DNA of 37,596 bases from an uncultured Gammaproteobacteria bacterium (GCA_964516555.1 CAZFAI010000003.1:1-37596), one strand, 5' to 3'. Counted from the stretch's first letter, positions 1,206-28,573 are shown. Notes: generated by a model from the letters alone, not told the origin. Program-made: numbers and translations.

Positions 1206-2120
1206 TTAAACTCCGGCTGATTTAATCGCCTTACCGATTTCCTCCACCACCATATTAACGCTCTTAACGCTGTCGTCATTTGCTGGAATCGGATAATCAA
1301 CTTTGTCCGGATTACTATCAGTATCTATCATAGCCACCACTGGTATCCTTCTCAAAATCGCTTCTCTAACTGCCGTTCTCTCAAATCCGGCATCAACAAC
1401 AAACAACACATCAAAAATCTTGTTTAAACTGGTCAATCCGCCGACATTTCTCTCCAATCGGTTAATTTCCTTATTCATGTCCGACAATTCTTTTTTAGTC
1501 AACTCGGTAAATGACCCATTCTCAATTCCCGAACGAAGTTCTTTTAATCTCTTAATATTTTTTCTGATTTCCTCCCAGTTGGTAACTGTCCCGCCAAGCC
1601 ACCGCTCAGTTACATAAGCCACTCCGGCATCCGTAGCCACCCTCTTTACTACTTCCCTGGCCTGTCTCTTGGTTCCTACCATCAAAATCTCTTTACCGTT
1701 TCTTCTGGCGTTATAAATAAAATTGCAGGCTTTCTCGAATTCTTTGATTGAATTAGTCAAATCCAGAATTTCTATTCCGTCTTTTGAAGTATATATATAG
1801 TCCCTTGCTTTCGGATGAGTCTTGGATACCTTGTGGCCCAAATGCGACCCGGCTTTCAGCATATCCTTCATATCCACGGTCAATTCATATTTCTTATCCG
1901 GTTTTCGTGTCTCGTCAGTGCTTTTGGATTTTACCCCAACAACTTGCTTATTAACTTCTTTTACCGCTCTTTCTTTCTTAGCTTTCACTTCCTCATTGAG
2001 TTTCTTTACCTGTTCACTGCTGACTTTCGATTGCTTTCTTGAATTAACTACCAAAGCTTTTTTTACCAAACTTTTACCGGTTCGGTTGACGGTTTTACTG
2101 ATTGTTTTCTTCTTTTCCAT
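1206..2120 (-). CDS. rpsB: 30S ribosomal protein S2 with an ~83-aa Lys-rich N-terminal extension
   Basis: The S2 core begins near residue 84 (MKDMLKAGSHLGHKVSKTHPKARDYIY). The 83 upstream codons are open and K/E/V-rich. Confidence 0.9.
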   Translation of the reverse strand: MEKKKTISKTVNRTGKSLVKKALVVNSRKQSKVSSEQVKKLNEEVKAKKERAVKEVNKQVVGVKSKSTDETRKPDKKYELTVDMKDMLKAGSHLGHKVSKTHPKARDYIYTSKDGIEILDLTNSIKEFEKACNFIYNARRNGKEILMVGTKRQAREVVKRVATDAGVAYVTERWLGGTVTNWEEIRKNIKRLKELRSGIENGSFTELTKKELSDMNKEINRLERNVGGLTSLNKIFDVLFVVDAGFERTAVREAILRRIPVVAMIDTDSNPDKVDYPIPANDDSVKSVNMVVEEIGKAIKSAGV

Positions 2121-2214
2121 AATGTTTGTCCTTATTAATAATAAATAGGCGGGGTAAAAACCCAGGACTCACGCCCAAAATAAATGAATAACTTAGCTTC
2201 GAAATTATATCACA

Positions 2215-2430
2215 TCAATCTCTCGATCCTCGTCCATTGTGTGGAGAACCTTGCCGGATAAGTCTGGGTATGATTTCAATCTGATATCCCGTACTCTGCA
2301 AATTTGCTATTTCGCTACCCGTCAAAAGCTTTCCAACGCCATCAACCCTGACCAGCGTTTTCCTGTTTCCACCTGGATATGTTCCATCAGGCTGTAAACC
2401 CTTTGGCCTCTCTCCTGACCCAAATGTCAT
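2215..2430 (-). CDS. hypothetical 71-aa protein
   Basis: ORF only. It is more GC-rich than its flanks, has no SD or clear -10 box, and no recognisable motif. Confidence 0.3.
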   Translation of the reverse strand: MTFGSGERPKGLQPDGTYPGGNRKTLVRVDGVGKLLTGSEIANLQSTGYQIEIIPRLIRQGSPHNGRGSRD

Positions 2431-2563
2431 ATTACTTTTTAATTTTATTTAATTTTTAAAAACTAGCAATAGATACTATATATAAAACAACCCGGGAGGA
2501 AAGAAAAAGAAAAGAAAGAAATGGACGAAACGAACAAAAAAACGAAATCTGCCTTCCTGGTAC

Positions 2564-2597
2564 GGAGGCGCTGTTTGCTGCTGCTCCCAGCGCCCCC
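2564..2597. terminator. GC-rich hairpin just beyond the cassette A ORF stop; possibly bidirectional
   Basis: GGAGGCGCTG (2564-2573) pairs with CAGCGCCCCC (2588-2597), 9 of 10 bp. On the plus strand GTTTGTGTT follows directly. On the minus strand the T-run is about 20 nt away. Confidence 0.4.
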
Positions 2598-2605
2598 GTT
2601 TGTGT

Positions 2606-2821
2606 TCAGCTGCCGCTGATCACGTCATGGTAGTCATCGGACATCACTTCCTGAACTGAAGGGACAATACCAGTAGACGGATCAACGTATCTGGTTTCAA
2701 TACAACCAGACAACGTCCTGACTTTTGGTCCGCGACATTTCTGCCGGGACTCCTCTGTTTGGAAACAACAACCGACGGCGGCGTAGTAGCACTCGGCACA
2801 ATCTGAAGCCTTGACACACAT
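2606..2821 (-). CDS. small Cys-rich protein (71 aa, 7 Cys, includes a CxxC)
   Basis: AAGGAG lies 8 nt before the ATG. Sequence starts MCVKASDCAECYYAAVGCCFQTEESRQKCRGPKVRTLSGC... with no signal peptide and an acidic C-terminal half. Confidence 0.5.
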   Translation of the reverse strand: MCVKASDCAECYYAAVGCCFQTEESRQKCRGPKVRTLSGCIETRYVDPSTGIVPSVQEVMSDDYHDVISGS

Positions 2822-2829
2822 GCAGAAGT

Positions 2830-2848
2830 CTCCTTGGGGGTTAAGGAT
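2830..2848 (-). promoter_or_regulatory. conserved SD block ATCCTTAACCCCCAAGGAG, able to form an SD-sequestering hairpin
   Basis: TCCTT and AAGGA are complementary around the loop AACCCCC. A near-identical block is present at 3500-3520. Confidence 0.4.
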
Positions 2849-2920
2849 CGAAATAAAATTCAGATGATCGGTGTGAATAGAAAGTCAGTGGCAATCATAG
2901 GCACTCTTGTTCTCCTTTGA

Positions 2921-2968
2921 ATTAGGGTCACAACAAACTATTATTCAATAGTCTCTTGTGACCCTAAT
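2921..2968 (-). promoter_or_regulatory. long hairpin in the cassette A 5' leader
   Basis: Perfect 13-bp stem, ATTAGGGTCACAA (2921-2933) with TTGTGACCCTAAT (2956-2968), plus an inner 6-bp stem ACTATT/AATAGT. It abuts the terminal inverted repeat. Confidence 0.45.
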
Positions 2969-3215
2969 CTCCCGGGTTGTCAAAGTACTCGTTTCGTCAA
3001 GTAAATCAGGCAAGCTATATGCCCTTTACTCTAGAAACTATTATTTTATTAAAAATTAACCTTAAATCAAATTAAGACCACTTTTTAATAAAAAACCCGG
3101 AAGAAAAAAGAAAAGAAATGATGCGCGAAAACACGAAAAAAAACGAACACTTTCCACACCATTTGGAATCAGGGAGCCGCAAACGGCGCTGTTTTTGGCC
3201 CCCTGTCCCTGCGTA

Positions 3216-3353
3216 CTACTTACTGACCTTCAGGGTCCTGGTGTCCAGGCCAGGATAGTTGCACCGCGTGCACCGACCACCCAACCTGGGAGAATGACAT
3301 CTAGGACATACTGATGTCGATTCCTTCCGTCCCGACGGCTTTGGTGTTCTCAC
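3216..3353 (-). CDS. 45-aa basic zinc-ribbon micro-protein (GTG start); possibly the C-terminal half of an L32-like protein
   Basis: Hand translation: VRTPKPSGRKESTSVCPRCHSPRLGGRCTRCNYPGLDTRTLKVSK. GGAGGAG lies 6 nt before the GTG. Has a CxxC-x8-CxxC pattern. Confidence 0.3.
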   Translation of the reverse strand: MRTPKPSGRKESTSVCPRCHSPRLGGRCTRCNYPGLDTRTLKVSK

Positions 3354-3418
3354 TTCTTTCTCCTCCTCACGGACCTACGTGACGTTCTCTTGTCACGTGG
3401 CTGTTTCTGTTTTTCCAT
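3350..3418 (-). CDS. 22-aa Arg/Lys-rich micro-ORF
   Basis: MEKQKQPRDKRTSRRSVRRRKK. AAGGAGG lies 10 nt upstream. Its stop overlaps the GTG of the next ORF. Confidence 0.25.
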   Translation of the reverse strand: MEKQKQPRDKRTSRRSVRRRKK

Positions 3419-3433
3419 TAAATGGAAACCTCC

Positions 3434-3493
3434 TTACTGAATGGTTTTGCGATGCTGAAGGGAGAGAAATGTGCCTGGCGGATCATCATTCAT
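3434..3493 (-). CDS. 19-aa leader-like micro-ORF
   Basis: MNDDPPGTFLSLQHRKTIQ. It follows the conserved CCCCCAAGGAGG block with a 6-nt spacer. Confidence 0.2.
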   Translation of the reverse strand: MNDDPPGTFLSLQHRKTIQ

Positions 3494-3499
3494 CGGTTG

Positions 3500-3520
3500 C
3501 CTCCTTGGGGGTGAAGGATT
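3500..3520 (-). promoter_or_regulatory. conserved SD block AATCCTTCACCCCCAAGGAGG (cassette B copy)
   Basis: Same TCCTT/AAGGA pairing potential as 2830-2848. Confidence 0.4.
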
Positions 3521-3918
3521 GCGAACACGCGATCGTTCTCTTCTCGTCTTTGAGATAGAACCCGAACAACTCCGATTTGTCGGAGCTCTTCAGGCCCTAC
3601 CTCAACTCTTTTCTTCCGGGTTGTTAAAGTGCTTTTTGAAGGCCTAAAAAAGATGCTGATATCTTTTGATATCCTTCAAAATATTATGGGCTTATTTTAT
3701 CACTAAATAAATAATTATCAAGTGATTGTTTTATAGGATTATTACTCAATTCTAGCCGCAAAAAGTCCTTTTCATTTCTGAAACACTTACACCGAAAACC
3801 CCAGACTATAAGTCTTACCAGTTCCATATGCGATATTACACCAGTATGTATAAATTTGCAACATGTAAATGCTTGCTAGTTTCCCTAAGCTAATTCTTCT
3901 ACTTAAATTTAAATAATG

Positions 3919-3924
3919 TAAAAT
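3919..3924 (+). promoter_or_regulatory. -10 box (TAAAAT) 6 nt upstream of the ATPase ATG
   Basis: Reads TGTAAAAT-atacac-ATG with no SD. Confidence 0.4.
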
Positions 3925-3930
3925 ATACAC

Positions 3931-6201
3931 ATGGCCGATCCGATCAAAAATAACCTATCGATACTGGAAATCCGCCTGCCTCAGGACAATGAATTTACTC
4001 TCGAAGCCATGTCCTCTTTACTCAGTAATTTTTCCCAATCGAGTGCTACTTCCCTCTTCAGCCTATTTAGCGGCAAAAGAAAAACCATTGCCTCACTGGA
4101 AATAGTCCTAAATGATGGCCAAATCCATTTTTATGTAGCTGCCCCCACCGATTCAATGGAATACGTCCGTTCTCAAATCCTGGCTCAATACCCTACCGCT
4201 ATCACCCGGGATACCAAAGATTATTTTTTCGACCCTGAAAAGCAAAAAAGTTTAATCTTTTCCCAACTTGGCATTACCAAATCCCACAATTATCCACTAA
4301 AAACAGCCCGCGATTTCCGCGATACCGATCCTCTCGTCTCCGTTTTGGCCCCCCTTTCCCGATCCAATAGCACTTCTGATTTTTTTGTCTACCAACTAAT
4401 ACTGGGACCGGCTTCAAAAAACTGGCAGAGTTCAATTATGGACATTATCCAAAATGGCATCGTTGTTGACAAGGAAAAGGGTTTCCGTCAGGCCCACCCT
4501 GACCGCTCCATATTCGAACAAAAAATTCAATTTCCCGGAATCCTATCTCAAATAAATCTTGCCTCAAACAACCCCGGTCTTATAGCTTCAGTGTCTTCAT
4601 CCTTTGGTGCATTCACCTCCCCTCGCGGCAATTCTATCAAAACCTTTACCCCGGGCCTTTTTTCCAAAAGCAAACTACCCGACTCCATCGTAAACCGCAA
4701 AATTACCACCAAACTCAAAACCCAAATCCTAAACACCGAAGAAGTCTCAGCCCTATGGCACTTCCCCAACAAACTAACTAAACTGCCAAATATAGCTTGG
4801 GGCAAAAATCTTTTCTCAGATCCTCCCGAAAACTTACCCGTCGCCGATGAAACCACCGAGGAACAAAAGAAAGAAATCACCTTCTACGCCAAAACCGAAT
4901 TCAGAAACAAAGATTCCATCTTTGGTATCAAACAGGGCGAAGACCGCCGTCGCCATATGTATATAATTGGTAAATCAGGTACCGGTAAAACCACTCTTAT
5001 TTCCAACATGGCTATTGACGACATTAGAAAAGGCCGTGGTGTTGCAGTTATCGACCCTCACGGCGATTTGTGCAACAATATTCTTGATTACATCCCCTCC
5101 CACCGCATCAATGACTGTTGTTATTTTAATCCTGCCGATCCTGAATATGTCTATCCGCTAAACGTTCTTGAAGCTCAAAGTGAGTCTCAAAAAGAGCTGG
5201 TAGCATCCGGCGTCATCTCCATTTTCAAAAAAATATACGGAGAAGTATCCTGGGGTCCCCGACTTGAACATATTCTAAGAAACGCCGTTTTGACATTAGT
5301 CAACACTCCTGACTCTACTCTAGTTGATATCGTTGAAATTTTAACTAACAGAAATTTCCGAGATAAAGTTATTGGTAAACTTCAAAACCAAACTCTCAAA
5401 AACTTTTGGATCAACGAATTCAACCGCATGGACCCCAAATTTCAAAACGAAGCCATCGCCCCCATTTTAAACAAAGTCGGCCAATTTATCGCTTCCAGCA
5501 ATATCCGAAATACCATTAATCACTCGAAATCCAAAATTAACATCCAGCAAATTATGGATGAGAAAAAAATCCTGATTGCCGATCTTTCTACCGGAAAACT
5601 CGGTGAAGACAACTCCGCTCTGCTTGGAGCCATGTTGATTACCCAGATCCAACTATCCGCCATGAATCGCGTATTTCAGGATGCTGAAGCCCGCTCTGAT
5701 TTTTACCTTTATGTTGATGAATTTCAAAACTTTGCCACCACTTCGTTTATCAAAATTCTTTCTGAAGCTCGCAAATTTAAACTTAATTTAATCGTCGCCA
5801 ATCAATACATGGCCCAAATCGAACGCCCCATTCAGGATGCCATCTTTGGCAATGTCGGCTCCATGGTTTCCTTTGTAGTCGGCAATCAGGATGCCTTTAT
5901 CTTGAGCAAAGAATTCGGTTCTCAATTCCCACCAGAGGATTTGGTCAAAATCGGCCGCTATCAAGTAATAAATAAATTAAGCATTGACTCGGAGACTACC
6001 AATCCATTTTACGCCCTCACTCTTCCGCCTCTATCCTGCAAAAATCAAGCCCGTGAGAAACTCATCCAAACTTCACGCCAGCGTTGGGGCAAAAGAAAAG
6101 ACAATATCCAAACAAACCCCAAACCCATTCAAAAACCTCAACAAATAGAAAAACCCAAACCTCCCACCACAATAGAAAACCACCGTACTTCCATCGAATA
6201 A
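3931..6201 (+). CDS. VirD4/TraD-type (type IV coupling protein-like) P-loop ATPase with an uncharacterised ~330-aa N-terminal domain
   Basis: Walker A is GKSGTGKTT (4969-4995) and Walker B is FYLYVDEFQNF, followed by LSEARKFKLNLIVANQYMAQ, which is typical of TraD/TraG-D_C. The Pro/Lys-rich C-terminal tail is low complexity. Confidence 0.8.
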   Translation: MADPIKNNLSILEIRLPQDNEFTLEAMSSLLSNFSQSSATSLFSLFSGKRKTIASLEIVLNDGQIHFYVAAPTDSMEYVRSQILAQYPTAITRDTKDYFFDPEKQKSLIFSQLGITKSHNYPLKTARDFRDTDPLVSVLAPLSRSNSTSDFFVYQLILGPASKNWQSSIMDIIQNGIVVDKEKGFRQAHPDRSIFEQKIQFPGILSQINLASNNPGLIASVSSSFGAFTSPRGNSIKTFTPGLFSKSKLPDSIVNRKITTKLKTQILNTEEVSALWHFPNKLTKLPNIAWGKNLFSDPPENLPVADETTEEQKKEITFYAKTEFRNKDSIFGIKQGEDRRRHMYIIGKSGTGKTTLISNMAIDDIRKGRGVAVIDPHGDLCNNILDYIPSHRINDCCYFNPADPEYVYPLNVLEAQSESQKELVASGVISIFKKIYGEVSWGPRLEHILRNAVLTLVNTPDSTLVDIVEILTNRNFRDKVIGKLQNQTLKNFWINEFNRMDPKFQNEAIAPILNKVGQFIASSNIRNTINHSKSKINIQQIMDEKKILIADLSTGKLGEDNSALLGAMLITQIQLSAMNRVFQDAEARSDFYLYVDEFQNFATTSFIKILSEARKFKLNLIVANQYMAQIERPIQDAIFGNVGSMVSFVVGNQDAFILSKEFGSQFPPEDLVKIGRYQVINKLSIDSETTNPFYALTLPPLSCKNQAREKLIQTSRQRWGKRKDNIQTNPKPIQKPQQIEKPKPPTTIENHRTSIE

Positions 6202-20891: not shown

Positions 20892-21952
20892 GGCAAACCC
20901 TCAACCCCTTCCTGTAAAAAACCTCGTACAATTAGCGACACTGCCTGTGATTCACAAATACCCCTTGTCATCAAATACTCCACCGACTCTCTTGACACCC
21001 TACCCACCGCCGCTTCGTGGGTCATCTCCAAATCAGGTAAATTAGCTTCAAGTTCCGGTATCGCCCTAATCTTCCCTCCTGCTCCCGTTATCAAACCCCC
21101 ACAATCCAAATGGGTTTTTACTCCAAAAGCATTTCCAACCATCAATCCCCAGTTTACCACCTCACCCCCACTGGAAACAATCCTGGATCTAACCTCAGAC
21201 CTCGACCCTTCGCCGTCAGCAATCACCGTATTACCCACATCAAACACACTTCTTGGATAGGCCATTACATAAGAATTAAACACCGCTCTACTGTTTTTGC
21301 CACTTAACTTACACACCGGATTACTCTGGAAAGACTTGACCGGCTTTAAGCAAACATAATTTGACTCAAATACACCATCCTCCTCCACCCTGATAGCTGT
21401 TCTTGGCCTGACATCAACCTCCTCTCCCCAATGATGAATCATATTAAAACTTACGCTGGCTCCTTTTCCCACAAATATCTCTGTTATTCCAAAATGCTTT
21501 GCCCGCTTAATTTTTTCTCCCACCAAACATCCTGTTATTATGGTTACTTCACTTCCTTCTTCTGCCACGATAATATTGTGTACTTTTTGAACCAAACTAG
21601 ATTGGCTAATATACAAACATGTTTGCACTGGTAATTTACTTTTAGTTCCCTTTTTAACCCGAATAAAATATCCCTGTTGCAAATCATTATCCACATCCTT
21701 AGTAAATTCATCCTTATTCCGATCAATTAATTTCCACCAATAATCAGACAATTCGCCATAAGCTTTCAAAGCTCTCTTGATGTTCATTACCTCTATCCCT
21801 TCCTGTTTTGAATAATCACACAAAGAATTTTTATTTTCAATTAAAACTGTCGATTTTTCTTTTGAATCCACGTCCACACCCACCAAACTAATTGCTTTTT
21901 TATCTTTAGTACTTAATTGTCCCGCCATTTTCTTTCTCCCCGGCACAAACAC
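20852..21952 (-). CDS. Fe-S cluster assembly scaffold SufB/SufD family protein
   Basis: SufBD-type C-terminal beta-helix region (EANLPDLEMTHEAAVGRVSRESVEYLMTRG). Lies immediately after sufC. The start may be MAGQLS at 21928. Confidence 0.85.
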   Translation of the reverse strand: MFVPGRKKMAGQLSTKDKKAISLVGVDVDSKEKSTVLIENKNSLCDYSKQEGIEVMNIKRALKAYGELSDYWWKLIDRNKDEFTKDVDNDLQQGYFIRVKKGTKSKLPVQTCLYISQSSLVQKVHNIIVAEEGSEVTIITGCLVGEKIKRAKHFGITEIFVGKGASVSFNMIHHWGEEVDVRPRTAIRVEEDGVFESNYVCLKPVKSFQSNPVCKLSGKNSRAVFNSYVMAYPRSVFDVGNTVIADGEGSRSEVRSRIVSSGGEVVNWGLMVGNAFGVKTHLDCGGLITGAGGKIRAIPELEANLPDLEMTHEAAVGRVSRESVEYLMTRGICESQAVSLIVRGFLQEGVEGLPQAVAREVARFTF

Positions 21953-22641
21953 TTAACACAAGCCCCATACCCCACCTTATTAATGGTTTCAAAAATCATA
22001 TCCACCCTTCCTTCACACTGTATCTTTCCCTCAATCATCACTAACCCCCTGTCTGCCTTCAAATACTTCAGCATTTCTCCATTGTGAGTTACTACAATTG
22101 CCGATTTGCCTTTTTTTAATAATTTTTCAATTTCTCCGGCAATCAGTTTAATATTAACCAAATCCACACCCGAATCCGGTTCATCCAACAAATACAAGTC
22201 AGATTCCATTAAAGCCAGTTGAAATAATTCCGATCTTTTAGTCTCCCCTCCGGATAAATTGCTATTTACACCCCTGTCTAAAAATTTACTTACGTTCAGG
22301 TTCTCAGAATTTTTTCCCATAATCTCCTCGCTACTTAATATTTTTGCCAATTCCGACAGCTTCAAACCATCAACTTTCGGTGGTTTTTGATACATTAGAG
22401 CAATACCCATTCGGGATCTTTCATCTATTGTCAATTTATTAATTTTTTTACCCTTGAATTTTATCTCTCCTGAAACGACACTATCTGCATTCAATCCCAC
22501 AATGCTTTTCAACAAGGTTGTCTTGCCACATCCGTTTGGTCCAAATATAACCACTAATTCCCCCTCCCCCACGGCCAGATCTATTCCATTCAATACATCC
22601 TTACCTTCGGCTTTAGTTTTTAAATTTTTTATTGTTAGCAT
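21913..22641 (-). CDS. sufC: Fe-S cluster assembly ATPase SufC
   Basis: Walker A GPNGCGKTT, signature LSGGETKR and Walker B LYLLDEPDSGVD. TATAAT lies 8 nt upstream of the ATG. Confidence 0.9.
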   Translation of the reverse strand: MLTIKNLKTKAEGKDVLNGIDLAVGEGELVVIFGPNGCGKTTLLKSIVGLNADSVVSGEIKFKGKKINKLTIDERSRMGIALMYQKPPKVDGLKLSELAKILSSEEIMGKNSENLNVSKFLDRGVNSNLSGGETKRSELFQLALMESDLYLLDEPDSGVDLVNIKLIAGEIEKLLKKGKSAIVVTHNGEMLKYLKADRGLVMIEGKIQCEGRVDMIFETINKVGYGACVKCLCRGERKWRDN

Positions 22642-22736: not shown

Positions 22737-22809
22737 GCCCAGATAGCTCAGTTGGTAGAGCATCCCCTTGGTAAGGGGAAGGTCATGGATTCAAGTTCCA
22801 TTCTGGGCT
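22737..22809 (+). tRNA. tRNA-Thr (anticodon GGU)
   Basis: Acceptor GCCCAGA/TCTGGGC, anticodon stem TCCCC/GGGGA with loop TTGGTAA, T arm ATGGA-TTCAAGT-TCCAT. CCA is not encoded. Confidence 0.9.
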
Positions 22810-23465
22810 CAAAAAACATTTCTCGAGACAATATTTCCAATATAGTTACGAACCACTAAATCTATTCCAGGAAATGTCCGCCTTAATCCAACCCAGCATT
22901 CCACGTCACGGACAACCTTCTTTGGGTTCTTAGCCCACCAGCCATCAGTTAACTTTAAGGCTAAAAAGTTTGTAGGTGTCAACGTTTTCATTTTTACACC
23001 ATAGACATCAACCTCCACGCCCTCAGTAAAACCTTCCGGAAAAATCACCCTACGATTACCTTTCTTATCACGATACTCCATCCTTTCTCCCAACCGCCAC
23101 CAAAAATTAATAACTTGATCCGGATTATTAGCTACTTCTTTTGGTAAATTTATTGGTGACATTTCCACCCGATAATCTCCTCCAGCTCCCCTATTCCAAA
23201 TTTCATCACAAATCCTTTTCACTTCAAATAAATCAGCATTTTCTGTCAACCCTATCAAATAATCCACATCAACCACCTCAAATCTTCCCTCAGAATCAGT
23301 CCCTCGGTACAAACGTGGCTCAATACCTGTTAGGCCATACAAACCCAAAGACCCCACCAATCTTGTTTCTATACCAATATCCTCGGTTCTTGCATTCAAG
23401 TAATCAAGCGAAACGGCAATTTTTTCTCTCGCCTCGCACGAATCAAACGATTCCCTGCTTCCCAT
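22809..23465 (-). CDS. hypothetical protein; possible nucleotidyltransferase fold, weakly supported
   Basis: 218-aa ORF. VGSLGLYG ... VVDVDYLI loosely resembles the GS...DxD NTase motif, but the spacing is longer than usual. Confidence 0.5.
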   Translation of the reverse strand: MGSRESFDSCEAREKIAVSLDYLNARTEDIGIETRLVGSLGLYGLTGIEPRLYRGTDSEGRFEVVDVDYLIGLTENADLFEVKRICDEIWNRGAGGDYRVEMSPINLPKEVANNPDQVINFWWRLGERMEYRDKKGNRRVIFPEGFTEGVEVDVYGVKMKTLTPTNFLALKLTDGWWAKNPKKVVRDVECWVGLRRTFPGIDLVVRNYIGNIVSRNVF

Positions 23466-24179: not shown

Positions 24180-25400
24180 ATGACTCACAACTTCAAAGGT
24201 TTTATTGACACCACATTTCGCGACGGCCAAGCTTCCCCTCTTCTGTTTGACACCAACAAATACGCCTTCACCCTCAAAGAAAAAATCCAACTTATCGACA
24301 TGATGCTGGAACTGGGTATCCGTCATTTCGAATTTTTCTCACCCATAGTCAGCAGTGTCGAGAAAAACGATTTTCTGGCAATCCGAAAACATGTCAAAGC
24401 CAAAAATATCCCCGGCGTATTTCTGCTAGCCCACTGCCGCTGTCACCCTGAAGACATCTCCCAAGCTCTGGAGTCCGGTTTTGATGGCTTAAATCTCTAC
24501 ATGGGTTTATCTGAGCATGCCCAGCAGACTTACAACAAAAGCTTTGACGAGCTGATGGCTATCGTAAAAACTACTATTACCAACCTCCGCCAGGAACATC
24601 CCAATCTCTGGTTGCGTTTTTCCGGAGAAGATGCCTTCAGAACCGATCTCTCGAGTCTTTTCAATGTTTATGATCAAATAGTTGATCTTGTAAATACTAT
24701 CGGCACTCCCGATACTACTGGAACCGCCACTCCAAAAGCTGTTGCCAAACGAGTCCGTGATCTCAAAACCCGCTATCCAAAAATCAACCTCGAATGCCAT
24801 TTCCACAACGACCTGGGTTTAGCCATGGCCAACACCATGGCAGCAATTGATAATGGAGCTGAATTTGTTGATTCAACCGTTTGGGGCATGGCCGAAAGAT
24901 CGGGAATAACTTCCACAACTGCTGCTTTACTAAACTTTTCACATCTGGACCCCGAAATCCTAAAAAGTTACAAAACAGAATTATGCTATCCCCTGAATGT
25001 TCTTATGGCTTCAATTCTAAAAACCCAGGTCCCCTGGTATGAACCTGTTTCTCTAACCAACAGGACCCACATTGCCGGAGTCCATCAAAAAGCAGTCCTG
25101 GCCAAACAGGGATACGAGGCCCATCACCTTGAAAAATTTGGTGTAGTCACTGATCAATTATTACTCGGTCCGCTTAGTGGCTGGAACTTTATTTACTACT
25201 ACCTCAAAGAAATCGGCAACTATATTGTCACCGAAGAACAAGCCAAGGAAATTGCGACAGAATTCAAAAACAGACAGGGTAAAGATTCCAAAATATTTAA
25301 GCCTGAAAACTTAATTGAACAAATTGCAAGTGAATTTAATTTGTCAAAAATCAGCATTCCCCAAAAATACGCCAAAACCAGAATCGAGAAATTGGACTGA
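24180..25400 (+). CDS. HMGL-like family enzyme (homocitrate / 2-isopropylmalate / citramalate synthase-like)
   Basis: DTTFRDGQASP near the N-terminus and HFHNDLGLAMANTMAAI, the DRE-TIM metallolyase signatures of LeuA/NifV-type synthases. Confidence 0.75.
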   Translation: MTHNFKGFIDTTFRDGQASPLLFDTNKYAFTLKEKIQLIDMMLELGIRHFEFFSPIVSSVEKNDFLAIRKHVKAKNIPGVFLLAHCRCHPEDISQALESGFDGLNLYMGLSEHAQQTYNKSFDELMAIVKTTITNLRQEHPNLWLRFSGEDAFRTDLSSLFNVYDQIVDLVNTIGTPDTTGTATPKAVAKRVRDLKTRYPKINLECHFHNDLGLAMANTMAAIDNGAEFVDSTVWGMAERSGITSTTAALLNFSHLDPEILKSYKTELCYPLNVLMASILKTQVPWYEPVSLTNRTHIAGVHQKAVLAKQGYEAHHLEKFGVVTDQLLLGPLSGWNFIYYYLKEIGNYIVTEEQAKEIATEFKNRQGKDSKIFKPENLIEQIASEFNLSKISIPQKYAKTRIEKLD

Positions 25401-27164: not shown

Positions 27165-27323
27165 AACTCATCCTTAAAATTAATTTAAAGATCAATTATA
27201 AAAAAATACATCTACACCACCCCCAGGGAACTTTGACACACATCTTTGTGTATCGCTGTTCCCCGAGGGGGTGTTGGAGGGAGTTTAGCACTTCATTGTG
27301 CTTCCTTCCCTCCTCTCGAGAGA

Positions 27324-28160
27324 TCAGATCCTCCTTCTTCTTCTGAATGACAGTGTAAACAGTCCAACTGTCAACAGAAGGAATCCACCCAGCGCCCACT
27401 TTCTGACTTCAAAGTCAGCACCCTCTCCACCGGTAGGAACCAGTGGGATAGGTGTTGCCGTTAAAGTCGGCCGTTCTGGCGTCGCGGTAGGCACCACTGG
27501 TGTGCTGGTCGGTACCACCGGCGTCTCTGTTGGGACAACGGGAGTCTCAGTTGGCGACACCGGCGTGCTCGTGGGGATCGGCGTTTCCGTCGGTTCCGGA
27601 GTGCTGGTCGGTATCACCGGCGTCTCTGTCGGCGTGACTGGCGTCACTGTCGGTACCACCGGCGTCTCGGTTGGAACAACCGGAGTCGAGGTAGGCACCA
27701 CTGGCGTGCTCGTGGGAATCGGCGTTTCCGTCGGTTCCGAAGTGCTGGTTGGTACCACCGGCGTCTCGGTTGGAACAACCGGAGTCGAGGTGGGCACCAC
27801 TGGCGTGCTGGTCAGCGTAGGTAGTGGTCGAGTGTACAAAACAACATGCGAAATGGCATAGGGAGTATCATTGACCCAACAGTTCTGACTCGGGTCAGGA
27901 TTAATCAATGATCCTCCTCCGGGCCCGCCGATCTTCACACACACTCCGACAACTTCATATCCCGGCTTTGGCGCCCAGCATACTCTGAACTCCTCAGCCC
28001 ATATACCGCCAGTTCCATCATTGTACTCATAACCAGCCATAGGAACCTCTGCCTTGACATTGCCTGCAGGACAGGTACTTCCTTCCGCTTCAACCATCGA
28101 TGACGGTATCATGGTCAAAACAACGACCAAGACCACCAAAAGCACAATACTCCACTTCAT
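27324..28160 (-). CDS. cell-surface protein: signal peptide, Cys-containing N-domain, Thr/Pro-rich repeats, C-terminal sorting signal
   Basis: Starts MKWSIVLLVVLVVVLTMIPSSMVEA. Has TxTPVVP repeats. Ends ...PLVPTGGEGADFEVRKWALGGFLLLTVGLFTLSFRRRRRI. An SD-like AAGGAAGG lies 6 nt before the ATG. Confidence 0.8.
   Translation of the reverse strand: MKWSIVLLVVLVVVLTMIPSSMVEAEGSTCPAGNVKAEVPMAGYEYNDGTGGIWAEEFRVCWAPKPGYEVVGVCVKIGGPGGGSLINPDPSQNCWVNDTPYAISHVVLYTRPLPTLTSTPVVPTSTPVVPTETPVVPTSTSEPTETPIPTSTPVVPTSTPVVPTETPVVPTVTPVTPTETPVIPTSTPEPTETPIPTSTPVSPTETPVVPTETPVVPTSTPVVPTATPERPTLTATPIPLVPTGGEGADFEVRKWALGGFLLLTVGLFTLSFRRRRRI
27432..27830 (-). repeat. GC-rich tandem repeats (21-nt TxTPVVP unit with higher-order ~120-nt copies) inside the surface protein gene
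   Basis: GGTACCACCGGCGTCTC...GGAGTC...GGCGTGCTCGTGGG.ATCGGCGTTTCCGTCGGTTCCG.AGTGCTGGT recurs with scattered substitutions. Confidence 0.8.
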
Positions 28161-28240: not shown

Positions 28241-28345
28241 GTTGCCAAGGGGTGGCAACTCTACAAAAGATGGGGGTTAAAAGGGGAAATATATCCAAAA
28301 GGGACACTACCGGCAAACTTTACCGGCACTATCCCTCCTGGATAT
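28241..28345. other. stacked hairpins in the 413-bp intergenic region upstream of hpf; candidate structured RNA or leader
   Basis: GTTGCCA-agggg-TGGCAAC (28241-28259). A three-tier hairpin has ATATCCA (28291-28297) paired with TGGATAT (28339-28345), inner GGGA/TCCC and inner CCGG/CCGG. Confidence 0.25.
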
Positions 28346-28573
28346 TTGATCTCTCGGATTGTCAAAGAACTATAATCCACACTCATTGATTAGCATTAAA
28401 TCAAAAGTGGGAACTATAATACATATTATAGGTTATAATAGCTTAAAAGTCAATCACTTGATAGCCACTTTCCACCATTCCTTGAAGCAAAATTCAGAAA
28501 ATGTTATCCTTAATTATCCTAAAACAAAACCGCTACTTCCTTGCGCTTTCCTTGTTATTGATTAAAACCTACC

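Follow-up and report, generated by a model that had tools for sequence, protein, structure and literature searches.

The 37,596 nucleotides (nt) of DNA analysed here (GCA_964516555.1 CAZFAI010000003.1:1-37596; hereafter the window) are recorded as coming from an uncultured Gammaproteobacteria bacterium, and their RpsB, the product of rpsB, places them in Candidatus Shapirobacteria, a lineage of the candidate phyla radiation (CPR). A gap of 1.8 kb separates rpsB, on the minus strand at 1206-2120, from a plus-strand gene for a TrwB/DUF87-like ATPase (3931-6201). An earlier note on this sequence had found no open reading frame (ORF) above 71 amino acids (aa) there, and our ORF scan agrees: between the starts of rpsB (2120) and of the ATPase gene (3931), the longest ORF has 71 aa. 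Two minus-strand units lie in the gap, A at 2487-3070 and B at 3092-3721. They are tandem paralogous small-protein transcription units at a fixed Shapirobacteria locus, with predicted promoters and transcript ends. A unit begins with a sigma-70-like promoter and a hairpin-bearing leader of 50-65 nt, followed by a WCYTTR motif that is conserved and single-stranded, a 5' arm, a long hairpin (P2) and a purine tract with a Shine-Dalgarno (SD) sequence. One or more SD-led small ORFs (the cargo) follow, then a GC-rich hairpin, a pyrimidine-rich tail, a 3' arm and a U-rich run (Table 1).

The unit cores have a GC content of 0.48-0.56 and a GC skew near 0, against 0.31-0.45 and -0.2 to -0.5 in the flanks, so that an impression first gained by eye, of GC-rich cores free of the flanks' excess of C over G, is borne out by measurement. 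The unit ORFs are led by SD matches of 6-8 nt, whereas none of the 29 larger genes in the window exceeds 5 nt and 17 of them miss an SD-like 4-mer altogether; the strong SDs that had been said to set the units apart from the housekeeping genes of the window are thus real.

All of the blocks that the earlier note had listed as common to A and B could be relocated in both units. Two minus-strand positions, 2969-2986 and 3613-3630, match the 5' block ACTTTRACAACCCGGRAG (chance expectation 0.07), whose sole other match in the window is a copy with three mismatches at 28351-28368, and the SD block ATCCTTMACCCCCAAGGAG lies at 2830-2848 and 3501-3519 (chance expectation 0.03). The 3' composite TTCGTTTTTTT...TTTCTTTTCTT...CCGGGTT matches the window solely at 2489-2546 and 3094-3147, with no match in shuffled sequence, and AAACAGCGCC is found in both units inside the hairpin of the 3' untranslated region (UTR). 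The two ends of each unit are complementary, perfectly over 12 bp in A (2487-2498 with 2969-2980) and at 90% over 20 nt in B (3091-3110 with 3606-3625, including 14 perfect bp), which is slightly longer than the 10 and 14 bp proposed before. A TTGACA inside the 5' block was considered as a -35 box and rejected: no unit has a -10 box at 16-18 nt from it, and better promoters lie 50-65 nt upstream.

Related loci and pairing of the unit ends

Further units occur in six other Shapirobacteria genomes (loci L093/L094/L095, L097/L105, L098/L099, L109, L100/L101 and L107). These relatives, traced through RpsB and the ATPase, share the gene order mreB, a penicillin-binding protein (PBP) gene, dprA, topA, the ATPase gene on the opposite strand, the gap, rpsB, tsf and frr, and in each of the six, between one and three units built alike are present in the gap. 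Because the same gap carries them in six relatives, comparison of the sequences indicates that the units are an inherited feature of the locus and not recent insertions. The ATPase gene itself is a core gene of the group, with more than 100 protein clusters at 69% identity or above. Locus L108 (RpsB 65% identical) has the same arrangement with no unit and only a 107-aa ORF, and the one independent contig of the same strain (L001) is 100% identical, with the segment in the same orientation. In L107 the promoter reads TTGACT-17-TATAAT. Two adjacent units of L107 (reverse complement of 1934-4000, at about 630-730 and 1250-1350) have their promoter and leader exactly duplicated and carry different small membrane-protein cargoes (83 aa and 133 aa in the contig's gene calls), which marks the L107 frame, on the sequence, as a recent tandem duplication.

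End pairing was scanned in 11 units by comparing the 20 nt after the motif with all downstream intergenic sequence, taking the best RNA duplex and 200 dinucleotide shuffles. The best partner was the unit's own 3' end in 11/11 units, with 0-3 of the 200 shuffles per unit reaching the observed duplex energy, and the end helix begins at motif position 7 in all but one of them (10/11). When the 11 sequences are set in a gapless alignment, 92.9% of the cells of the 14-bp end helix are paired and two-sided changes occur at 12 of its 14 pairs; none of 500 shuffles matches the observed pairing, and sliding the partner by 1-3 columns lowers it to 39-57%. The arm sequences vary from CCCGGGAG via CCCGAAAG and CCCAGGAA to CAACUUGAAAAA, AAGCUGGAGAAAGG and AAAACUCGCAAAAUAA, and cognate arms outbind non-cognate ones by far in four of five distant units. 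Complementary 5' and 3' UTR segments retained in evolution, the mark of a 5'-3' UTR interaction, are therefore found here in 11/11 units, in the covariation and in the ensemble probability given below. The earlier reading of A and B as two paralogous minus-strand units with a common non-coding frame and pairing ends accords with the further units and with the covariation.

The non-Watson-Crick cells of the end helix comprise 20 G.U on the ORF strand against 6 A.C, and the sense duplex is the more stable one in 9/11 units. Because of this G.U excess and stability difference, the alignment points to arm pairing in sense RNA and not to a DNA site. An outward extension of the end helix (ACUUU with a downstream AAAGU) was rejected as inconsistent, being confined to some B-type units. 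The earlier note had also suggested that the arms could pair an SD-like with an anti-SD-like sequence, and this is not conserved: the GGGAG of the arms varies to GGAAG, GAAAG, AGGAA, UUGAAAAA and others in other units. Masking is instead predicted for the SD-like purine tract 3' of P2, through pairing with the pyrimidine tail and not with the arms.

Folding of whole units and a third 5' module

Folded as a whole, unit A (507 nt) has a minimum free energy (MFE) of -180.7 kcal/mol (z -6.1) and unit B (547 nt) one of -210.6 kcal/mol (z -7.4), and in both the ends are paired in the MFE and the centroid structure. Across the 12 units used for ensemble folding, the probability of the end helix is 0.75-1.00. 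P2 is a 23-bp covarying hairpin kept in the six close units, where 17 of its 23 pairs still pair after double changes; it is absent or different in L098, L109 and L100. Of the 25 nt that follow P2, 9-18 are paired in 6/6 close units with the pyrimidine tail, immediately 5' of the 3' arm. The end helix, P2 and the purine-tract/tail helix are together predicted to form a three-way junction that closes the mRNA, and in this model the junction would explain most of the blocks listed above, namely the 5' block, the polypyrimidine tail and the terminal CCGGGTT.

A covariance model trained on the motif, arm and P2 of the same six close units has matches outside its training set in two L107 units (about 29 bits) and at a third 5' module in the window, which is matched over its full length. 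This third module precedes a gene for a 278-aa signal-peptide protein (27324-28160, minus) and also has a leader hairpin. Its own 5'-3' pairing was not accepted as firm evidence: although the pairing is used in the MFE structure, its duplex energy of -18.0 lies inside the background range. A separate canonical terminator lies 3' of the predicted partner site.

These structures could also be read as serving mainly the formation or processing of the RNA 3' end, with the end helix acting as a long-range intrinsic terminator stem or, together with P2, as an RNase III site that would release the unit from longer transcripts. U-rich sequence does lie 3' of the 3' arm in all units, and no canonical minus-strand terminator is called between ORF and 3' arm; however, the whole intergenic region is AT/U-rich, which makes a U-run weak evidence, a terminator stem spanning about 480 nt would be kinetically unusual, and the arm of the third module has its predicted partner at a stop codon with the separate terminator beyond. 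As a near-perfect duplex of 22-23 bp, P2 has the size that RNase III prefers. Release of the RNase III type is also seen for stems flanking rRNAs. UTR pairing is known to make an RNase III substrate in icaR (PMC3868564), but the uneven occurrence of P2 in L098, L109 and L100 speaks against such a general role here, and we consider this explanation unlikely.

Two side observations concern the 5' regions of the units. A stretch of about 45 nt in the unit B leader is identical in the window, L093 and L105, despite rpsB DNA that is only 76-79% identical; within it, GATATCAAAAGATATC comprises a pair of EcoRV-type palindromes at a spacing of one helical turn, and by its sequence looks like an operator just 3' of the unit B promoter. 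Leader micro-ORFs 3' of P2 end in Pro-Pro-stop in two orthologues (MLPP* in L093 8286-10000, positions 949-963; MPP* in the reverse complement of L105 2265-4000), which could be a ribosome-stalling context, with MIATDFLFTPII* as the equivalent in the window.

Table 1. Features of units A and B and of the third 5' module, in window coordinates
Feature	Position	Strand	Basis or remark
Unit B promoter-like site TTGATA-16 nt-TAAAAT, TG before -10	3694..3721	-	10/12 consensus matches; kept in L093, L105
Unit B leader hairpin UUUUGAAGG...CCUUCAAAA, enclosing GATATCAAAAGATATC (3658-3673)	3634..3681	-	Inverted repeat
Unit B motif ACUUUA, then 5' arm ACAACCCGGAAGAAAAGAG	3606..3630	-	Block match, end pairing
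Unit B long hairpin P2, directly 3' of 5' arm	3552..3608	-	17/23 pairs still pair after two-sided changes
Unit B purine-rich tract 3' of P2	3534..3549	-	17/25 nt paired to pyrimidine tail in MFE
Unit B local hairpin UCCUU-CACCCCC-AAGGA, predicted to mask first-ORF SD	3501..3519	-	SD block, fold
Unit B cargo, three SD-led ORFs	3216..3493	-	19 aa 3434-3493; 22 aa 3350-3418; 45 aa 3216-3353
Unit B GC-rich 3' UTR hairpin with AAACAGCGCC	3170..3211	-	Fold; kept in L093B, L105B
Unit B pyrimidine-rich tail UUCGUUUUUUUU...CAUUUCUUUU	3111..3147	-	3' composite, fold
Unit B 3' arm CUUUUUUCUUCCGGGUUUU, then U-rich run	3092..3110	-	End pairing
Unit A promoter-like site TTGATT-16 nt-TAAAAT	3043..3070	-	Promoter consensus scan
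Unit A motif ACUUUG, then 5' arm ACAACCCGGGAG	2969..2986	-	Block match, end pairing
Unit A hairpin P2, 22-nt arms, 91% complementary	2921..2968	-	Inverted repeat, fold, covariation
Unit A purine tract and first SD UCAAAGGAGAACAAGAG (2904-2920)	2860..2920	-	14/25 nt paired to tail
Unit A 12-codon leader ORF MIATDFLFTPII	2860-2898	-	3' of first SD
Unit A local hairpin UCCUU-AACCCCC-AAGGA, predicted to mask SD of 71-aa ORF	2830..2848	-	SD block, fold
Unit A cargo, 71-aa protein with 7 Cys	2606..2821	-	Codon comparison with L093 orthologue
Unit A GC-rich 3' UTR hairpin GGGGGCGCUG...CAGCGCCUCC	2564..2597	-	Fold; kept in L093A, L105A
Unit A pyrimidine-rich tail	2499..2546	-	3' composite, fold
Unit A 3' arm CUCCCGGGUUGU, then UUUUAUAUA	2487..2498	-	End pairing
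Third 5' module: motif UCUUUG, arm, long hairpin	28285..28368	-	33.1 bits, E 1.4e-5, full-length match
Third-module promoter TTGACT-N17-TATAAT	28425-28453	-	Promoter scan
Predicted 3' partner UGAUCUCUCGAGA of third-module arm	27314..27326	-	Overlaps stop codon of 278-aa gene; in MFE of 1168-nt transcript

Cargo proteins

The 71-aa protein of unit A has an orthologue in L093 with 44% identity (30/68 residues) that keeps six of the seven Cys. Different codons are used for 22 of the 30 identical residues, and the two genes differ at 30, 28 and 46 codon positions 1, 2 and 3, respectively. Because this comparison is dominated by synonymous, third-position changes, the 71-aa ORF is, by its substitution pattern, a real gene. 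A single-sequence AlphaFold2 model of the protein was unusable (predicted local distance difference test (pLDDT) 58). The three ORFs of unit B are led by AAGGAGG, AAGGAGGT or AGGAGG; the 22-aa ORF is highly basic and the 45-aa ORF contains CxxC...CxxC, and the unit B cargo gives a weak match to a double zinc ribbon (E 0.013). No orthologue of this cargo is present in L093 or L105, where it has been replaced by two overlapping ORFs that are 63% and 87% identical between these loci and show the same substitution pattern as the 71-aa gene. The second of them (L093 8286-10000, positions 460-628, and its L105 equivalent) is the 87% identical one and begins MGD(K/R)SPEKTPKRRAGRPR..., which is AT-hook-like.

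Several cargoes share a CxxCxY..G(x)C..KCxGP core, and A and B therefore probably began as duplicates. The cargo of A and B had previously been described as one 71-aa protein with 7 Cys and three SD-led micro-ORFs, respectively, which stands, and as unrelated, which does not entirely hold in view of this Cys core. Among the distant units, L100 and L107 carry small multi-pass hydrophobic proteins. The 3' blocks also contain small ORFs on the plus strand (32 aa and 46 aa, with M.E..KK and RRC in common), which were rejected as genes, their orthologues lacking an ATG or lying in another frame.

The possibility that the units are structured non-coding RNAs with incidental ORFs has to be weighed against these substitution patterns. 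Their very low folding z-scores, their position as GC-rich islands in an AT-rich genome and the lack of database homologues of the proteins would all suit a non-coding RNA. However, the A cargo keeps its residues and Cys while its codons and third positions change, two B-type ORFs of L093 and L105 do the same, every unit ORF has a strong and correctly spaced SD in a genome otherwise without them, and Rfam has no match. This is the most improbable of the explanations that we weighed.

Between unit A and rpsB there is a third small ORF (2215-2430, minus, 71 aa, C-terminus HNGRGSRD), 49-51% identical to its L093 and L105 counterparts with many synonymous changes, which has no family match and is not enclosed by a unit frame.

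Turnover of cargo within a conserved frame

Cargo turns over between closely related genomes. Between L098 and L109, rpsB DNA is 98% identical, promoter, leader and 5' arm are 96% identical, and the 3' UTR is 93% identical with a run of 100 consecutive identical nt, while the interior is 51-58% identical, near the shuffled controls (48-50%). When unit B of the window is compared with L093B and L105B, the 5' frame is 86-90% identical and so exceeds rpsB (76-79%), the interior falls to 45-51%, about the shuffled level, and identity resumes at the 3' hairpin, tail and arm. The cargo of L105A is likewise unlike the A cargo of the window and L093. The breakpoints of replacement coincide with the 5' arm's inner edge and with the 3' UTR hairpin, and on these alignments the frame is held tightly and the cargo has been replaced repeatedly. 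The term cassette used in the earlier note should not be taken to mean a mobile element, the units being syntenic and vertically inherited with only the interior turning over.

Diversification at this locus extends to the neighbouring ORF. Comparison of L098 5054-6000 with L109 1798-2734 shows a small ORF just 5' of rpsB that is about 80% identical despite the 98% of rpsB itself, and the whole stretch from the ATPase gene to rpsB looks, by sequence, like a recombination or diversification hot spot.

Repeated exchange between complementary ends raises the question of whether the arms act in DNA, as terminal inverted repeats of an element resembling a miniature inverted-repeat transposable element (MITE) or a cassette, or as inversion sites, in which case the covariation would represent a shared protein recognition sequence. 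The units resemble MITEs and integron cassettes in being short, with inverted-repeat ends (12-20 bp flanking about 500 bp) and variable cargo between conserved sequences, this cargo has undergone at least three replacements among close relatives, and their GC content is unlike that of the surrounding DNA. On the other hand, the same site is occupied in genomes with rpsB 64-98% identical (protein or DNA), with no empty site in the close clade, and the arms differ between units of one genome, so that no common recombinase site exists. The mismatches are biased to coding-strand G.U (20 vs 6), and the pairing statistics thus point to RNA; no target-site duplication stands beside the arms, and the replacement boundaries coincide with the 5' arm and the 3' UTR hairpin but not with the 3' arm. 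In contrast to the near-identical multi-copy spread of MITEs or insertion sequences (IS), copies are syntenic across species, are only 48-61% identical per segment outside the short blocks and occupy the site in all close relatives. The complementary arms sit at opposite ends of a unit and not within one 3' attC as in integrons, and no attC-type site is evident on reading the units. No integrase or recombinase is apparent among the eight proteins tested, which include the immediate neighbours (S2, the TrwB-like ATPase, TopA, DprA, PBP and three small ORFs), and phage, plasmid and viral collections gave no matches. A DNA-level role of the arms is hence very unlikely.

Database searches and other features of the window

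Our searches agree with the earlier statement that the units fit no known element class, with no match among known IS, MITE, non-coding RNA, phage or plasmid sequences. At gathering thresholds, Rfam finds only three tRNAs in the window; with E up to 10, the region 2150-3950 gives only three sub-threshold chance matches (PK-IAV, mir-3045 and isrC), and Rfam families including hok, sok, OLE, GOLLD, ROOL, raiA and the ribosomal protein leaders do not match the units. Viral contigs and GTDB genomes (one per species) were scanned for the exact pattern of the SD block, and viral contigs alone for two forms of the 5' block; the matches were only chance or coding ones and lacked the other blocks. Searches by blastn against phages and plasmids gave no match to the units, and a metagenome scan that used RpsB yielded no more than two loci, at 41% identity. 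The 71-aa protein found only itself in a word search of 5.8 billion proteins, and itself plus two spurious Cys-repeat proteins in a HMMER search of 1.8 billion proteins, while sequence searches of all small ORFs against Pfam, NCBIfam, PADLOC and PDB gave none above threshold.

Two observations concern gene expression elsewhere in the window. In several window genes a TATAAT-like box lies 8-15 nt 5' of the start codon (for example upstream of 21913-22641, 22809-23465 and 24180-25400), and the combination of SD-less genes with such a close box suggests leaderless or very-short-leader mRNAs in the host. The rpsB promoter region (2121-2214, minus) has an extended -10 element, TGTGATATAAT, and a leader hairpin, TCCTGGGT...ACCC, that is kept at every Shapirobacteria locus examined (L093, L098, L100, L105, L107, L108 and L109); this hairpin has no Rfam match and may be a candidate S2 autoregulatory leader.

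Comparison with known 5'-3' UTR interactions

The Bacillus subtilis hbs mRNA, which encodes a small basic protein and has a strong SD, forms a 14-bp helix between its 5' and 3' UTRs that overlaps an RNase Y site (PMC5737220). It resembles the units in its structured 5' UTR and in a long-range UTR helix of about 14 bp that abuts a single-stranded nuclease site, the helix of the units having 12-20 bp and directly following WCYUUR (PMC5737220). The two differ in that there is no sequence relationship, hbs is one conserved gene while the units are a family with interchangeable cargo, and the nuclease site is known for hbs but cleavage at the motif of the units is only putative; P2 and the purine-tract/tail helix have no counterpart described in the abstract on hbs. 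In Staphylococcus aureus icaR, a UCCCCUG of the 3' UTR pairs with the SD, blocks initiation and makes a substrate for a double-stranded RNase (RNase III) (PMC3868564). For the CU-rich tail of the units, similar pairing is predicted, namely to the first SD-like purine tract of the same mRNA. Unlike icaR, a single gene, the units form a multi-unit family, and their main pairing is a separate covarying end helix without the SD, the masking of the SD being predicted.

The hok and aapA3 mRNAs combine a long-distance interaction with CU-rich anti-SD elements (PMC6733600), and covariation supports the 5'-3' interaction in hok/Sok and aapA/IsoA (PMC6733600, with Gultyaev et al. 1997 as cited there). 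The likeness to the units is considerable, extending to local SD hairpins, leader ORFs before a small main ORF and variable proteins in a conserved mRNA design. By analogy, the units might be type I toxin-antitoxin-like loci in which the closed mRNA is an inert store of a harmful small protein, activated by 3' trimming and countered by an as yet unseen antisense RNA. Cargo that is small, fast-evolving and replaceable would suit this idea, as would the small multi-pass hydrophobic proteins of L100 and L107 and the tandem duplication of the units; many type I toxin-antitoxin loci are tandemly duplicated. A closed mRNA with a sequestered SD, typical of type I systems, is found here, with the sequestration predicted. 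The hydrophobic toxin peptide of such systems is not found in the window, where the cargoes are hydrophilic, Cys-rich or basic and not membrane peptides. The long-distance helix itself leaves out the main SD, the units of about 500 nt sit at one syntenic housekeeping locus, and the sequence gives no clear sign of an antisense RNA: the only antisense promoter-like site (2917-2944, plus, inside the P2 palindrome) is not kept in L093A or L105A by eye, and the small ORFs on the antisense strand lack conservation. Neither Rfam, searched for toxin and antitoxin RNAs of type I with E up to 10, nor PADLOC gave a match. We regard a toxin-antitoxin function as improbable.

Proposed control of the unit mRNAs and its implications

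We think it reasonably probable, though far from assured, that the units are small-protein mRNAs controlled by a 5'-3' UTR interaction, with a conserved frame and replaceable cargo. The closed mRNA would hide both RNA ends, shield the helix-adjacent WCYUUR motif from ribonucleases and keep the first SD paired until it is opened by translation or by trimming of the 3' end. The main-ORF SD, in a small hairpin of its own, would open only on upstream translation or trimming of the 3' tail. In this way the frame would set the stability and translational competence of whichever small ORF sits inside it, which would be why it is tighter than the neighbouring protein genes while the cargo diverges or is swapped. 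The cargo would probably be replaced via recombination within the conserved flanks.

Several points weigh against this interpretation. Promoters, transcript ends and processing of the units are predictions only, and the cargo gives no indication of what the control is for. The 3' halves of the alignment were set in helix register, which favours structure, while no such bias affects the scan of the 20 nt after the motif. The purine-tract/tail helix joins low-complexity sequences and is supported by energy minimisation only; masking of the main SD is uneven among units, where 3-12 of its 12 nt are paired. Because a local GC hairpin and U-runs precede the 3' arm, some transcripts might stop short of it. 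The copy count, finally, is confined to the approximately 115 kb of related DNA that was scanned.

Since 5'-3' UTR interactions are already known from hbs, icaR, hok and aapA, what is new here is the multi-unit family with its constant frame, replaceable cargo and fixed locus. A bolder idea, which we hold to be doubtful, is that the frame is a 'plug-in' platform for the expression and exchange of hypervariable CPR small proteins. With its promoter, leader, end helix, P2, 3' hairpin and pyrimidine tail, it would provide uniform post-transcriptional control and homology arms for cargo swaps from strain to strain at the fixed site beside rpsB, in function a cassette system other than the integron, whose cargo might be strain-specific effectors or toxins held in inert closed mRNAs.

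The unit family is small and belongs to an uncultured lineage with reduced genomes, and its covariation is unusually clear over at least 11 units. A regulatory RNA architecture is held here more tightly than housekeeping coding sequence, while the genes enclosed by it are swapped between strains with 98% identical rpsB. If transcript mapping confirms the predicted units, they would provide an RNA motif for annotating overlooked small-protein genes in Patescibacteria, and a natural case of 'constant UTRs, variable cargo' for control by mRNA closure, in organisms largely without SD sites.

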